Shown here: positions 33,001-39,000 of the stretch, one piece after another | Layout of the letters: each line of letters starts with the position of its first letter | Position numbering within the stretch: the first letter of the stretch is position 1 | Assembly: GCA_051746405.1 (NCBI GenBank) | Contig: JBNJFB010000001.1 | Coordinates: forward strand, 64,001 to 128,000 | DNA: 64,000 nucleotides | Origin: Campylobacterota bacterium | Lineage (GTDB): Bacteria; Campylobacterota; Campylobacteria; Campylobacterales; Arcobacteraceae | Direction: 5' to 3' | Position numbers: made by a program

Positions 33001-36000
33001 ATTAGAGTATTGACAGGATTACATATAGGTATAAGTGATGATACTATGAATATTGGTGGTATTGATAGTGCAGTTATAAAAAGAGAAATATACGCAGATA
33101 AAACTACTGGTGAAATATGTTTTGACCCCTACGAAAAGAATAAACTAAAAGAAAACATAAAAAAACTTAGTGAACCTTATATCCCAGGAAGTAGTTTAAA
33201 AGGAAAGATAAGAAGTCTTTTGGAGTGGAAATTTGGCTTAATAGATAAACAAATTAAGTTATCTAAAAATGAGAATTCTAAACTTAAAAAAGGTGCAGTT
33301 ATTGACTCTACTTTTGTAAATGCGATAGATGATGAAAATTCTGATGAAACAAAACTAGCAAAGCTTATCATAAAACTATTTGGTGAAAGTGCTGGTACAA
33401 ATAGTAATGAAGAGATAAAAATAACAAGAGCAATTTTTAGAGATTGTTATATTACAGATAGTACAAGAAAACTTTTTTTAGAAGATAAAATCAAACTAAA
33501 AGAAGAAAAAGCAGAAAACAGTATAAATCGTGTGGATATTGGTGCGAATCCTAGATTTATTGAAAGAGTTCCATCTGGTGTTGAGTTTGATTTTGAAGTA
33601 ATTATAAGAAATTTTGCAGATGATAATAATGAACTTTTAGAAGATACAATCAAGTTAGGACTTTTACTTCTTCAAAATGACGCTTTAGGTGGAGGTGGAA
33701 GCAGAGGAAATGGACGAATAGAGTTTGATAGTTTAAAAGAAAATATTGAAGAAACTTTTAGTTTAATAAATAATAAATTAGGAATCAAAGAAAATGGGAA
33801 TGAAGGTAAATAATGATGAATCTTCTAACCTTTGAAATAACTCCCTTATCAGATTTTGGAAGTTTCCCTAAAGGTGATATGCTTTTTTCTCAGATGCTTG
33901 CACAAAGTTTTTGGCAAAGGGAAAATACTTTTGCAAACTATTTAGAAGAAAAGCCTAAACTTATAGTATCAGATATGATGCCTTTAGGGTATTTTTATAA
34001 GCCTACTTTACCTTTTAGTTATTTTGATAAATTATCAAAAAAAGAAAGAAAAAAATCTCTTGATAGAAAAGAGTTTAAGAAAAAGGCTTTTATAAAGTAT
34101 GATGATTTAGAAAGTGGAGAACTTTATAAGTGTAAAGAGATAAATTTTTACAAAAAAATAACACAAGGTAAAAACTCTATAAATAGACTTACTTTTACAA
34201 CAAGTGAGGGTGACTTTGCACCATATAAAGAAGAACAAATATCTTTTAGTAGTAAGCTTTGGATTTTTTTACTTGTAGATAAAAGTATAGAATCAAAAGC
34301 TATAGAGTTATTAAAAAGTGTGGGTAAATTTGGTTTTGGTAAAAACTCTTCTACAGGAAAAGGGCAGTTTGAAATAAAACAGATAAAAAATCCTTTCAAA
34401 TTAAAATCTAGTGATTATTTTATGAGTATTTCTCCTATGATATTAAATCAAGATGAAAATATAAAAAGTTGTTTTTATGAACCTTTTACAAAATTTGGTA
34501 AGTTTCATATGGCAAACGAATCAAAAAATACTTTTAAAAAGCCATTGCTTTTAGCTAAAAGTAGTGTAGTTTTAGAACAGATAAAAAAAACTAATAGTTT
34601 TTATTATGGAAGTAGTATTGATAATAGTTCTGTTCAAGATAAAAAGTCATTTGTACAAGGTTTTAGTATAAAAATACCTATAACTATAAAGGAAAAACAA
34701 TGGCTAAATACAAAATAACAGTTTTAACTCCTTTACATATAGGAACAGGAAATTCATATAGCCAAAACTTTAATATGTTATGTAAAGGTGGCTTTGTATA
34801 TTTGTATGATGAGTTTAAACTTGTAGATTTTCTTTTATCAGAAGGTGAGTATATACCCCAAGAAATTGAGAAATTAAAAGAAAAGATAAGAAACTACAAA
34901 GATGAAATCATAAAATCAAATCTTCACTTAAGAAAAATAAAAAATAACTTTTCTTCTTTAGAAAATAAAGATGTTCTTGAAAATGTATCTTCATCAAATA
35001 AACCAATAGTCACAGGAAGTAGTATAAAAGGGGCTATTAGAACGGCTATTTTAAACTCACTACATTTAAAAGATAAACGAAGTAAAGATTTATATAATAG
35101 TCTAAAAAATAAAAATATTAAAAGAGATAGATTTTCTAAAGAAAGAAAAACCGAAGATACTTTTGATAAGGATTTTATGTCTTTATTTACTTATTTAAAA
35201 ATATCAGATTCAATTGAGTCAAACTTAAAGACTCAAATTTTTAAATCTATAAATATCAAAAAAAATAAAAAACATCAAAGCTCAAGAGAAAAAAGAGTAT
35301 TTAAAATCCAAAACAATGTAGAGTGCATATCTGCTAAACAAATGTTTTATATAGATATAAAAGATGAAAGTATAAAAAAATATGGTAAAAATATTTTCTC
35401 AAATCTTGGAAAAATTTGTAATAAGTTTTATTTAAATGCTTTTAATAAAGAAAAAGAATTATATTTTAATCTTTTCTCTTTAGGCAAAGATTTTGAAATA
35501 AATGAGGAATCAAATGACGTTTTTTTATTAAATATAGGAAGATTTTCAGGTGCAGAGATGAAAAGCTTAGATAATTTTAGATATATAAAATACTCTAAAA
35601 CAAAAGATAAAAAAGAATCATCAACAAGAACATTTGCACTTAAAGATGATGTTGAAGATAATGTTTATTTTGAAAAAGAGTTGCTACCTTTTGGTTGGGT
35701 ATTATGCGAATTAGTAAAGGATCAAGATGAATTTATATGATTTATTAAATAAAATATTTGAAATGTATCCGATGGGATTTTCAATTGTTTTTACAATTAT
35801 TTGTTTTTTAGTAATTGCAGGAATTGTTGGAATATTATATTTTTTTAACGGTTTAATTGCCGAAAAAGTAATCGATAGATATTTAAAAAAGTATTTTGAA
35901 AATAAGAAAAAAGAATATGGTGAAATAGTTATGAATTTTGAAAGAGAAAAAGAGTTTAAGCAAAAAGAGGTTTTAGTCTTAAATGATGAAAAATCTATCA

Positions 36001-39000
36001 TTTCAAAAACTTTACATACTTTGGATTATAAGTACACTACAAATGAAGAAAACTGGGAAGGTAAAATGGTAATTTTATATTTACCTGATGTTCAATCAAA
36101 TGATAAGAATCAAGAAAAAAGACATGAAGTTTTCAAAGAAAAACTTAAAATTTTAGAAACTTTAGATAGAGATGAACATATCTTACTTATATATGCAACG
36201 TATCCAACTTTTAAAATTGATGGGTATAATAAAGATGACTTACCAAAAAAATATACTTTTATTAATAGTCAATTTACTTTAATAGAAAGACTTTATAGTG
36301 CATATATAATTTCAAATATTAAGGAATAACATTTTCCAACCTTTTTAACTAAAGATTGGATACAATACTTATGTAATAGGAGTTCTTTTAAAATTTATTG
36401 TTTTTTATAAAATGATTGGAAAAAAACTTTAAATGTACTATAATTTAGTACTTTTGTAAGATGTAGTAATTTTAGAAGTGCCTGTTTTCTTTAGTAATGA
36501 CCCAACATATAGGGGATTGAAATCTCCTTGTGGTAGCTCTTAAATCTACAAGTGATTCAGTAATGACCCAACATATAGGGGATTGAAATTTTTTCCAACT
36601 CCTTTATAACCAATCCTGTCTCGTAATGACCCAACATATAGGGGATTGAAATTTGCTATGAGTTCTCGTATTGTTTGCATACGGTATTGTAATGACCCAA
36701 CATATAGGGGATTGAAATTCTTTATTAACGCTAGTTACAAAGTTACCTAATGTGTAATGACCCAACATATAGGGGATTGAAATAATAAAAATAGATTCAA
36801 ACGGTTTAAGTTTTTGCGTAATGACCCAACATATAGGGGATTGAAATTAAATTTAGCTCTCTCTTCGTCTAGTTCAAAATAGTAATGACCCAACATATAG
36901 GGGATTGAAATAAGTATATTCATCTTCTTCCTTGTATCTACAATAAGTAATGACCCAACATATAGGGGATTGAAATTTAGAAATGAAGTTAAAAAAGATA
37001 TTAAACAAATACGTAATGACCCAACATATAGGGGATTGAAATCTTTTATCCTTTAATTTAAATCGTCCAACTCACCATTGTAATGACCCAACATATAGGG
37101 GATTGAAATTGAATTCTCTGTCGTCATTATCATCTAGGAATATTAGTAATGACCCAACATATAGGGGATTGAAATATTGAAAATGAGTAAAGAAGTAGAA
37201 TTAATAAAGCAGTAATGACCCAACATATAGGGGATTGAAATTCTTTTAAGATACTATTTATATGTTCGTTTCCTGTAGTAATGACCCAACATATAGGGGA
37301 TTGAAATTTCTTAAAATCATTTTTTCGATTTTCTTTTTGTCAGTAATGACCCAACATATAGGGGATTGAAATTATTTATCCAATAAAGCTTTAACATAGT
37401 CAATATGTAATGACCCAACATATAGGGGATTGAAATGAGTCTCAGAAAAGTAGCTTTGAAAACTTAGTAAGTGTAATGACCCAACATATAGGGGATTGAA
37501 ATTCTTATACATCTCCTTTGTTTATATTTCTTAGTTCTAGTAATGACCCAACATATAGGGGATTGAAATTAGTTTATCTTTAAAAACTCTTTTTCCATAG
37601 CAGTTGTGTAATGACCCAACATATAGGGGATTGAAATTTGAATACTTCTTGTTTTTCTTCACTTTTAAACTCTGTAATGACCCAACATATAGGGGATTGA
37701 AATGTGAACCACAACAAGGACAAACTGGTTTACCATTAGTAATGACCCAACATATAGGGGATTGAAATAATACTAACACAATGTTTTGATCATCTTATGC
37801 CTTATGTAATGACCCAACATATAGGGGATTGAAACCATTATCCTCCCTTTTTAATGAAATACAATATAATTGTAATGACCCAACATATAGGGGATTGAAA
37901 CTTTTCTCCTTGTTTTTTTGTATATTAAATTAACTTTGTAATGACCCAACATATAGGGGATTGAAACCTTTCTAAAAGTGCATTATATGCAGCATAGTAA
38001 CGTAATGACCCAACATATAGGGGATTGAAACTTTCTAATAATATACTGACTTATACCACCTATGTTTGTAATGACCCAACATATAGGGGATTGAAACCAA
38101 TATTTATGAATTACATTACCCAAAGTAGTAGCGTAATGACCCAACATATAGGGGATTGAAACAGAAGAAGTAGAAGAAGATAAGTCTCTTCTTTTACTTC
38201 GTAATGACCCAACATATAGGGGATTGAAACCTAAAAGTTAGAAACAGGACATTAAAAAACAAGTGTAATGACCCAACATATAGGGGATTGAAACAAACTA
38301 TTACACCCAAAATCATCTGCTACCCATTTGTAATGACCCAACATATAGGGGATTGAAACATTGATATTTTTGCTTTTTTTTGCTTGATCATTTTTGTAAT
38401 GACCCAACATATAGGGGATTGAAACAAACTATAATCTTGTTTTAGACAGTTAACTATACTGGTAATGACCCAACATATAGGGGATTGAAACATAGTCATC
38501 TTCTGCCCCTTTTTATTAACCTAAATTGTAATGACCCAACATATAGGGGATTGAAACAGAGACAGCTTATCAGCACAGTCTCTTATTAGTATAGTAATGA
38601 CCCAACATATAGGGGATTGAAACTTTAGATTTTCTATCTTAGCTACATCTGTATTATTAGTAATGACCCAACATATAGGGGATTGAAACTACCACCATTT
38701 ATGTATTCCATAAACAACCACCTTTGTAATGACCCAACATATAGGGGATTGAAACTTACATAGAAAAGAAACATTATAAATGTTCCACCAAGTAATGACC
38801 CAACATATAGGGGATTGAAACTAGGACTTTTTAAATTAATCTCTTTAAGATTTGTACGTAATGACCCAACATATAGGGGTTAGAACATAGCACCAACATC
38901 TAAAATATAAAAGACAATATATTTAATAAAAAGTTTAAATGTGAATATAAAAGTTTTTTTATTAGATGGCACTATTTTAAAATGATGATTTAAAAGTAAA

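Follow-up and report, generated by a model that had tools for sequence, protein, structure and literature searches.

The last gene of a cas6-cas10-csm2-5 operon in an Arcobacteraceae genome, g00095, encodes a protein that we read, at a probability of roughly 0.6, as the single-pass, signal-activated effector of an HD-less type III-A CRISPR system, with a receiver-like domain as its sensor; it is probably the killing or arrest device of the operon. The DNA analysed (the window) is a stretch of 64,000 nt from an assembly that is 95.8% complete and divided into 103 contigs. An earlier note had proposed g00095 as the missing membrane effector of this operon, and that proposal is strengthened by linkage to csm genes in further loci and by the place of one relative in a CBASS operon, which support a reading as a cyclic-oligoadenylate-activated membrane effector. 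The novelty that the note claimed for the family, a new type of ancillary effector, is weakened, as a protein of the same build, Cam2, was proposed in 2024 (PMC11229360).

The operon is assigned to type III-A by cas10/csm1 and csm2 to csm5, all five of which score over their NCBIfam cut-offs (Table 1), while cas6 reaches 40.9 bits with the NCBIfam Cas6 model, under its cut-off of 58.65. The gene g00095 starts with ATG, is preceded by AAGGA at a distance of 8 nt, and shares its first 14 nt with the end of csm5; it is the last gene at the place that the earlier note gave. Cas10 carries the cyclase motif GGDD at residue 351 and no HD domain in its first 120 residues, and since it aligns to positions 222-753 only of the 753 in the TIGR02578 profile, the HD part is missing, which bears out the earlier description of a cyclase-positive, HD-less protein. 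A hairpin just past the g00095 stop likely marks the end of the cas operon, and it is followed by a CRISPR array, absent from the earlier note, whose spacers gave no protospacer match in a phage collection.

Table 1. Features of the type III-A locus and of g00095, in window positions
Feature	Position	Strand	Evidence or remark
cas6 (277 aa)	30056-30889	+	PADLOC Cas6 E 2.1e-42; Pfam CRISPR_Cas6 E 3.5e-12
cas10/csm1 (534 aa, HD-less)	30886-32490	+	TIGR02578 370.3 bits (cut-off 170)
csm2	32450-32986	+	TIGR01870 46.4 bits (cut-off 30.6)
csm3	32986-33813	+	TIGR02582 169.6 bits (cut-off 90)
csm4	33813-34718	+	TIGR01903 74.6 bits (cut-off 55); PADLOC Csm4 E 1.7e-61
csm5	34700-35740	+	TIGR01899 51 bits (cut-off 38.3); PADLOC Csm5 E 4.5e-23
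g00095 (200 aa), candidate signal-activated membrane effector	35727-36329, stop included	+	ORF, family, position after csm5
g00095 membrane helix, residues 19-37	35781-35837	+	mean Kyte-Doolittle 2.88 over 19 residues
g00095 basic juxtamembrane stalk helix, residues 38-78	35838-35960	+	AF2 helix 18-78, family alignments
g00095 cytoplasmic receiver-like alpha/beta domain, residues 79-200	35961-36326	+	
10-bp hairpin	36335-36360	. (palindromic; listed on - strand)	
Promoter-like site TTGGAA-17-TATAAT in CRISPR leader	36416-36444	+	weak evidence: 54 such sites in region, 62 expected by chance
CRISPR array, 37 repeats of ~30 nt, period 63-68 nt	36494-38888	+	

The architecture given in the earlier note, one N-terminal membrane helix and an alpha/beta C-terminal part, is confirmed by the Kyte-Doolittle profile, which holds no second hydrophobic segment, and by AF2, which models one helix across the membrane segment and the stalk and then the domain. 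With deeper alignments the model reaches a pLDDT of 80.8 over the full length and 85.6 over the domain, superseding the mean of 50 reported before. The membrane segment has one K/R on its N-terminal side and four in 20 residues on its C-terminal side, and its predicted orientation is N-terminus out and C-terminus in. All 19 full-length members of the family share the single N-terminal membrane helix, the long stalk helix and an alpha/beta domain of about 120 residues, and in all 19 the N-terminal flank is poor in K/R and the C-terminal flank basic, which places the domain in the cytoplasm. Two residues of the stalk, Y52 and F77, are invariant in the family alignments, and the domain conserves N86, D87, Y156, T184, E187, R188 and Y193.

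The top Foldseek match of the domain is the CheY-like chain 3crn_B (E 1.3e-3), a match to a generic fold. This receiver-like fold is what an ordinary two-component phospho-receiver would also show, but such an identity is close to refuted: where beta3 ends the family alignment has no conserved Asp, and after beta5 no Lys, so that the domain is not a phospho-receiver; Pfam Response_reg is unmatched at E<=10 in 14 of 14 members (FleQ matches in Pfam are faint, in 4 of 14, best E 0.056); and kinase genes are absent from the five type III loci and from the CBASS unit described below. It is very improbable, too, that the domain is no sensor and instead a membrane-held glycosidase acting on NAD or nucleotides, of the TIR or nucleoside-deoxyribosyltransferase type. 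Structure matches of that type do occur, but dozens of receiver domains tie with them, Pfam at E<=10 shows no sequence match to such a family, and one domain of 120 residues would have both to sense and to catalyse. Enzymes of this type have their catalytic Glu outside the last helix, unlike the conserved acidic residue of the family, which lies in it.

With the single protein as query PADLOC gave no match at E<=1 and no match got below E 0.045 in Pfam or E 0.53 in NCBIfam, and the PDB sequence profile search returned only a designed Rossmann 2x3 protein (E 0.003). The CARF models of Pfam and PADLOC matched no family member, and no CARF chain is among the structure matches listed; a T-x3-R at the start of the last helix of the family resembles part of the CARF signature.

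The three homologues counted in the earlier note are indeed what a single-sequence search returns, but profile searches extend the relatives to 19, or 20 clusters with the window protein. A chance ORF is excluded, since a frame of 200 codons in DNA of 28.7% G+C has stayed intact, conserved motifs included, in homologues as distant as 25% identity. The family is present in 4 of 184 Arcobacteraceae genomes; a phylum-wide sample yielded 2 of 401 genomes, both previously found members, and viral contigs contained no relative among 570 pattern matches. Weak matches of the single protein in four genomes (G061, G062, G143 and G077) lie in frames of 429-1398 aa and were taken as spurious, and so was a match in G082, in a frame of 937 aa.

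For 6 of the 20 clusters the neighbouring genes are known, five in type III-A loci and one in CBASS. The type III-A loci are those of the window, of the genome G151, of the metagenome contig L014 and of the genomes G086 and G148, and the last four have homologues that are, in this order, 91, 86, 28 and 25% identical to the window protein (blastp). In these cas6-cas10-csm2-5 operons the family gene overlaps csm5 or begins 2-4 nt past it, the exception being G086, where two extra ORFs intervene; start and stop are tightly coupled to csm5 in four loci, and in the fifth to the two extra ORFs. The Cas10 of all five loci is short, with GGDD and without HD. The link to csm genes had been thought to rest on the window alone, a caution that is lifted by the homologues of 25-28% identity at the same place in two more HD-less operons. 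The ORF pair of G086 is HEPN-like. In G151 the family gene is intact, the adjoining cas10 has an in-frame stop, and there is no array.

Selection on the gene bears on another reading, which we regard as distinctly unlikely: that this small gene is hitch-hiking or in decay and does nothing for defence in the lineage today. The three closest homologues give dN/dS values of 0.83-1.5, where csm4 and csm5 give 0.14-0.37; the values for the family gene rest on few changes, as dS is only 0.03-0.05, and a ratio near 1 in such close relatives may reflect relaxed or diversifying selection. Decay would also fit the rarity of the gene within the Arcobacteraceae and its persistence next to the broken cas10 of G151. 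Against it, the frame is open and the motifs invariant across the 20 clusters, the deeper pair G086 and G148 gives a dN/dS of 0.33, a sign of protein-coding constraint at depth, the junction with csm5 is tight in most loci, and the divergence of the family gene keeps pace with that of csm4 and csm5 across a recombination breakpoint.

The CBASS relative, P0013, is encoded on one metagenomic contig (L015) and is 42-44% identical to the type III-linked members P0006 and P0005; in the family tree it lies in a clade (support 98/99) whose other members include type III-linked ones. A single nucleotide separates its gene from a downstream CD-NTase (Pfam SMODS E 8.8e-15; PADLOC Cyclase E 6.2e-74), a nucleotide synthase unrelated to Cas10, with an intact GS...DID motif. 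A WYL regulator lies upstream, and P0013, the cyclase and an E2 gene (E 8e-54) follow one another in that order with 1-nt and overlapping junctions. With no other effector candidate in the P0013-cyclase-E2 unit, P0013 occupies the effector position beside a CD-NTase and an accessory gene in this one locus, which argues, on grounds independent of the csm operons, that the family domain reads a cyclic nucleotide. The sole match of the L015 cyclase among solved structures is 6p80, the CdnC of E. coli MS115-1 (E 1.1e-9), an enzyme that makes cA3, and by this sequence similarity hints at cA3 as ligand. The organism of L015 belongs to family f7 (frdA 84-89% identical), in which the profile of the P0013 family matched none of 351 sampled genomes; P0013 was unmatched in a plasmid collection, and a literature search on receiver-domain membrane effectors in CBASS had nothing relevant among the papers listed.

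It is unlikely, though less so than decay, that g00095 is an accessory and not a killer, and either serves as a tether at the membrane or modulates the Csm complex or its signalling, for instance as a nucleotide buffer or localisation factor. Csm3 has RNase activity and may defend at the RNA level without any effector, the HEPN-like ORF pair could be the real effector in G086, and g00095 has one membrane helix only. Earlier surveys took this view of type III-linked membrane proteins in which no soluble domain could be recognised, and Shmakov et al. 2018 (10.1101/270033) suggested that they act in membrane anchoring. A Csm-specific tether would, however, be pointless in a CBASS operon with P0013 as sole candidate effector, and in related csm loci that lack g00095 its place is taken by proven effectors. 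Among the 184 Arcobacteraceae genomes six have csm5, and four of these carry the family gene; the other two (G006 and G179) carry Csx23 and Csx20, G006 also Csx1. The PADLOC Csx23 models match the proteins of both genomes (E 1e-24 and 6e-23) and none of 14 family members at E<=1.

The window genome, which has a single cas10, was described in the earlier note as free of CARF, SAVED, Csm6 and Csx1 proteins. That statement stands for CARF-HEPN proteins, for which PF09455 and the PADLOC Csx1/Csm6 models found nothing while matching control genomes; for SAVED and PF09659 (Csm6) there was likewise no match, but the controls were equally silent. Searches by tblastn with Csx1, Csx23 and Csx20 of relatives found nothing in this genome. 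Given the silent controls and the incomplete assembly, a signal effector may be encoded elsewhere in it.

The synthesis of cyclic oligoadenylate by the Cas10 palm is established for type III systems, and if g00095 is the effector, defence would begin, judging by the GGDD motif, when Csm-crRNA binds a foreign transcript and Cas10 makes this signal. Either cA3 or cA4 would then bind the receiver-like domain, likely in the crevice that binds phosphate in receiver domains, a step suggested by conservation on the predicted secondary structure: N86-D87 lie at the end of beta1, Y156 at the end of beta4, and T184, E187 and R188 at the start of the last helix. The change would travel along the stalk to the membrane helices, bundled in an oligomer, and, by analogy with Csx23 and Cam1, perturb or depolarise the membrane so that the infected cell stops growing. 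With one membrane helix per chain the protein must oligomerise to act, which counts against the effector reading.

The closest known proposal is Cam2, a predicted protein with an N-terminal membrane helical domain and a REC-like C-terminal domain, found in 26 type III loci in a screen of loci with cyclase-positive, HD-less Cas10 and no known effector; it has no partner kinase, and its suggested role is that of a cyclic-oligoadenylate binder that disturbs the membrane (Hoikkala, Graham & White 2024, PMC11229360). Like Cam2, g00095 has an N-terminal membrane helix and was found in an HD-less, cyclase-positive locus without known effector, and it matches the predicted Cam2 class in build and context, so that the build is one already proposed; the likeness is by description. 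The text on Cam2 names NucC and SAVED-CHAT as neighbours of Cam2 and mentions no CBASS operon, whereas g00095 has neither neighbour and one of its relatives lies in CBASS. Our literature searches found no experimental data on Cam2; among the papers searched only this one pairs 'Cam2' with 'type III CRISPR', and a search on REC domains and type III CRISPR had it as the only relevant match. That the family is unrelated in sequence to the published Cam2 set, its domain being a true cyclic-oligonucleotide receptor serving Cas10 and CD-NTase through an independent recruitment of a CheY-like fold with a one-helix output, is a tentative alternative that we consider somewhat doubtful; if true, CARF, SAVED and the Csx23 domain would be joined by one more class of sensor.

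Other effectors resemble the family in part. Csx23 is a small type III effector in which N-terminal membrane helices are joined to a small non-CARF domain in the cytoplasm; this domain binds cA4, and ligand binding perturbs the membrane domain (PMC11014256). It resembles g00095 as a small membrane protein with a non-CARF cytoplasmic domain and takes the csm loci without g00095, but its sensor fold is novel according to its authors, unlike the receiver-like domain, and its AF2 tetramer model has eight membrane helices, two per chain against one. Cam1 joins membrane helices to a cytoplasmic sensor and causes depolarisation when activated by cA4 (PMC11229360); its sensor is a CARF domain, of which the g00095 family matches no model. 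NucC, TIR-SAVED and SAVED-CHAT serve both Cas10 and CD-NTase signalling (PMC11229360), as the family would with its five type III-A loci and one CBASS locus, but combine a NucC or SAVED sensor with a nuclease, NADase or protease output where g00095 has a receiver-like sensor and a membrane helix. Cap15, a cyclic-nucleotide-binding CBASS membrane effector whose sensor is neither CARF nor SAVED (PMC11229360, PMC11014256), has a beta-barrel sensor and no sequence or fold match with the family. In the 2024 survey about one in eight type III loci (133 of 1113) has a Cas10 that is active as a cyclase and dead as a nuclease, with no effector that is known or credible, and a receiver-fold nucleotide sensor was flagged as a priority for study (PMC11229360); the signal reader in such loci is the open problem to which the family speaks, adding a compact candidate of 180-200 aa with a confident model, a short list of conserved residues for mutation, and the CBASS link.

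Three weaker leads to the identity of the family were set aside. A NARF (PF20299) lead from ESM Atlas clusters, part of which carry it, had sub-threshold scores of 0.76-0.79, no Pfam support at E<=10 and nothing useful in the literature. The PADLOC model Mem_02, '2TM membrane protein with a globular domain', matched 3 of 14 members (best E 3.4e-4) and did not hold, giving one weak match only in 301 Campylobacterota genomes. The PADLOC model C3a55, 'ABC permease', also matched 3 of 14 members (best E 3.5e-5), but it matches frames of about 300 aa in 6 of 184 Arcobacteraceae genomes, in B. subtilis and in D. radiodurans as well, and its matches probably reflect a generic alpha/beta similarity.

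The last gene of the type III-A operon, g00095, is best filed as a Cam2-like candidate effector. The earlier note had described it as closing an operon whose Cas10 keeps its GGDD motif and lacks an HD domain, and the frame, the compact operon and the overlap with csm5 were all confirmed here. Cas10 lacks the N-terminal HD nuclease part, its match to TIGR02578 spanning only profile positions 222-753 of 753, and csm2, csm3, csm4 and csm5 all exceed their NCBIfam cut-offs. The ATG of g00095 lies 14 nt within csm5, with AAGGA 8 nt 5' of it, and its stop codon is followed by a hairpin, a promoter-like site and then the CRISPR array; placed between csm5 and the CRISPR leader, g00095 is therefore inside the cas unit. 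The array falls into two halves distinguished by the final repeat base, the first 20 listed repeats terminating in ...GATTGAAAT and those from 37805 on in ...GATTGAAAC, and the last repeat is degenerate. An antisense frame overlaps the g00095 start.

Coordinates of the features discussed, in the window, in related loci and elsewhere in the window genome
Feature	Sequence	Position	Strand	Remarks
Type III-A operon	window	30056-36329	+	
cas6	window	30056-30889	+	
cas10/csm1	window	30886-32490	+	534 aa; TIGR02578 370 bits (cut-off 170); GGDD at residue 351
csm5	window	end 35740		
Antisense ORF	window	35711-36001	-	96 aa; probably spurious
g00095	window	35727-36329	+	200 aa
Hairpin	window	36335-36360		10 bp
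CRISPR array	window	36494-38888		37 repeats
Overlapping ORF pair	L009 (G086)	10274-11333	-	192 aa each
cas10	L011 (G151)	5417-7000		in-frame TAG
P0013	contig behind L015	9980-10519		
CD-NTase	contig behind L015	10521-11390		
E2	L015	11390-12037		
Type I restriction system	L015	12102-18650		
csm locus	L034 (G006)	4625-17250		
Type I-B locus	C12	~11188-19335		
Type II locus	C63	~5470-10301		cas9, cas1, cas2

The same arrangement recurs in relatives: a homologue closes the cas6-cas10-csm2-5 operon in the Arcobacteraceae genome G151, the metagenome contig L014, Malaciobacter canalis (G148) and a Halarcobacter metagenome-assembled genome (G086), and Cas10 is HD-less with GGDD in all five type III-A loci, the window included. 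The homologue starts 2-4 nt 3' of csm5 except in G086, where an overlapping ORF pair with a faint HEPN signal separates the two genes. The second ORF carries an R-N-x-x-x-H motif, a faint Swt1-like HEPN match below the cut-off (E 0.0026) and a faint match (E 3.9e-4) to a CARF_HEPN model at its HEPN end; the pair may be a frameshifted HEPN effector. In G151, the genome most closely related here, cas10 is broken by a single in-frame TAG (VDD*KIKQ) at a position that is a Glu codon in the window, and the g00095 homologue beside it is intact and 91% identical; a repeat copy was sought within this 20-kb locus and none was found.

The window genome, G148 and G151 all carry the locus at one and the same place in the chromosome, with flanking proteins 61-80% identical. 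By amino-acid identity between the window and G148, the type III-A locus is a mosaic, with what looks like a recombination breakpoint between cas10 and csm2. The divergence of g00095 keeps step with the csm4-csm5 cassette and not with cas10. Relative to L014 and G151, the cas genes are 92-97% identical, exceeding the flanking housekeeping genes (61-80%) despite the placement of the window genome in a different genus.

Amino-acid identity (%, blastp) to the window proteins
Protein	G148	L014
Cas6	59	59
Cas10	92.6	93
Csm2	40	90
Csm3	37	94.5
Csm4	32	96.7
Csm5	28	93.8
g00095 homologue	25	86

Over the long term g00095 is a constrained coding sequence, its dN/dS between G086 and G148 being 0.33 (csm5, 0.19). 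Among the window, G151 and L014, csm4 and csm5 give 0.14-0.37 and g00095 gives 0.83-1.5, the latter at a dS of only 0.03-0.05 and hence from few changes with wide error; recent selection on g00095 is either relaxed or diversifying, and many of its differences concentrate in the beta4-beta5 loop.

The g00095 subfamily is rare and absent from all profile libraries searched here. g00095 itself matched nothing at E<=1 in PADLOC, nothing below E 0.045 in Pfam and nothing below E 0.53 in NCBIfam. The earlier note counted three homologues, the number returned by a single-sequence search of 5.8 billion clusters (84-91% identical), but the family is larger. Exhaustive phmmer against 1.84 billion representatives added two distant members, P0009 (E 1.6e-11) and P0010 (E 2.9e-9); a single-protein search of 184 Arcobacteraceae genomes found frames of about 190 aa in G086 (E 5.2e-6) and G148 (E 1.4e-3); and the family profiles A2 and A3 retrieved 12 proteins at E<=0.01 and 15 at E<=0.1, respectively. 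Altogether there are 20 clusters at 90% identity, made up of 19 full-length proteins (179-201 aa) and one fragment of 102 aa. Rarity is also seen genome by genome, since the family profile matched 4/184 Arcobacteraceae genomes (plus one weak, probably spurious match), 2/401 in a phylum-wide sample and none of 351 from the taxonomic family of the L015 organism. F77, L83, N86 and D87 are invariant in all 20 members, while Y52, E63, K75, L153, I155, Y156, T184, L185, R188, L189, Y193 and I195 are kept at >=90%; the family signature is the C-terminal motif N-x-x-[FL]-T-L-[ILV]-[ED]-[RK]-L-x-[ST]-x-Y.

Each of the 19 full-length members has a single, strongly hydrophobic N-terminal segment (mean Kyte-Doolittle 1.67-3.24 over 19 residues); a further such segment was found in none. 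The N-terminal flank is 3-19 residues long with at most one K/R and the C-terminal flank is basic, which predicts an N-terminus outside and a C-terminus inside. AlphaFold2 with 8 sequences modelled full-length g00095 at a mean pLDDT of 80.8, as a helix (18-78) followed by a beta-alpha-beta-beta-alpha-beta-beta-alpha domain; the domain alone, with 20 sequences, reached pLDDT 85.6 and pTM 0.82. With both models the best Foldseek match is the CheY-like receiver 3crn_B (E 1.3e-3 and 4.5e-3, middling strength by the tool's guidance), which suggests a three-layer flavodoxin/CheY-like fold. A working phospho-receiver was ruled out, because none of 14 family members matched Pfam Response_reg at E<=10 and the family alignment has neither a conserved Asp at the end of beta3 nor a conserved Lys in the post-beta5 loop. 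N86 and D87 directly follow beta1, Y156 ends beta4, and T184, E187 and R188 stand at the start of the last helix; mapped on secondary structure only, the conserved polar residues would sit where such folds bind ligands.

A second context comes from a 391,930-bp metagenomic contig (locus L015), where the family member P0013 is followed after 1 nt by a CD-NTase (Pfam SMODS E 8.8e-15; PADLOC Cyclase E 6.2e-74; GS...DID motif) whose end is overlapped by an E2 gene (PADLOC E 8e-54). On the 5' side there are a WYL regulator and a palindromic hairpin, and on the 3' side a type I restriction system. Type II CBASS units are usually ordered effector-cyclase-accessory, and P0013 is the sole gene of this unit without an assigned role. 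A maximum-likelihood tree puts the window group in one deep clade and P0013 in the other, which has 13 members (support 98/99) and includes the type III-linked P0005 (44% identical to P0013) and P0006 (42%). Because that clade holds type III-linked proteins and P0013 stands beside a CD-NTase, the same sensor-output module, shared by type III-A and CBASS, would work with two nucleotide synthases that are not related to each other, as is also the case for NucC and SAVED effectors. Use of this Cam2-like subfamily by CBASS, as gene order on this one contig suggests, is a new observation. In the neighbouring restriction system HsdS is fused at its front to a nucleotidyltransferase (Polbeta) domain, and a separate NTase-substrate-binding (HEPN-like) gene sits between hsdM and hsdS.

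Gene context is the chief evidence, and these type III-A loci and the CBASS unit support, more strongly than before, the earlier functional reading of g00095 as a signal-activated membrane effector. The proposal that the effector family is entirely new is not upheld at the level of build, which is shared with the predicted Cam2: g00095 has every architectural and contextual feature given for Cam2 in PMC11229360 (Hoikkala, Graham & White 2024), a likeness of build and context. The supplement of that paper, on ten characterised effectors, has no Malaciobacter or Halarcobacter entry and no Cam2 accession, and a literature search for 'Cam2' with 'type III CRISPR' returned nothing beyond it. The nearest proven analogue is Csx23, described in PMC11014256 as a small effector in the membrane whose cA4-binding domain is not a CARF; Csx23 profiles have no match in the g00095 family.

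Among the 184 Arcobacteraceae genomes csm5 occurs in six, two of which, G006 and G179, are without a g00095 homologue and differ by substitution, with Csx proteins in its place: G006 (HD-less Cas10, 516 aa) has Csx20, Csx23 and Csx1, and G179 (Cas10 with HD) has Csx20 and Csx23. Their related csm loci (L034 and L035) open with csx20-csx23-cas6. A second contig of 189 kb carries the G006 locus, in which a PIN-domain ORF and Csx1 lie 3' of csm5 and the reverse-transcriptase-Cas1 gene seems to be in two pieces, ORFs of 171 aa and 548 aa.

The activating nucleotide is undecided between cA3 and cA4. For cA3, the sole PDB sequence match of the L015 cyclase is E. coli MS115-1 CdnC, entry 6p80 (E 1.1e-9), an enzyme whose product is cA3. 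The Cam2 prediction likewise points to cA3. In favour of cA4, Csx23 and Csx1, the effectors of the most closely related csm loci, are both listed in PMC11229360 as cA4-activated.

The window genome has a single cas10. As to the earlier statement that it encodes no CARF, SAVED, Csm6 or Csx1 protein, Csx1/Csm6 models found nothing there and did match in control genomes; searches for SAVED and PF09659 were uninformative because the controls were silent too, and with an assembly 95.8% complete in 103 contigs the absence of an effector from the genome is not proven. Neither cas1 nor cas2 is present in the type III-A locus, whose repeat is restricted to contig C1. Both adaptation genes are present in the type II locus on C63 and in the type I-B locus on C12 (cas6, a 568-aa ORF without a match, cas7, cas5, cas3, cas4, cas1 and cas2).
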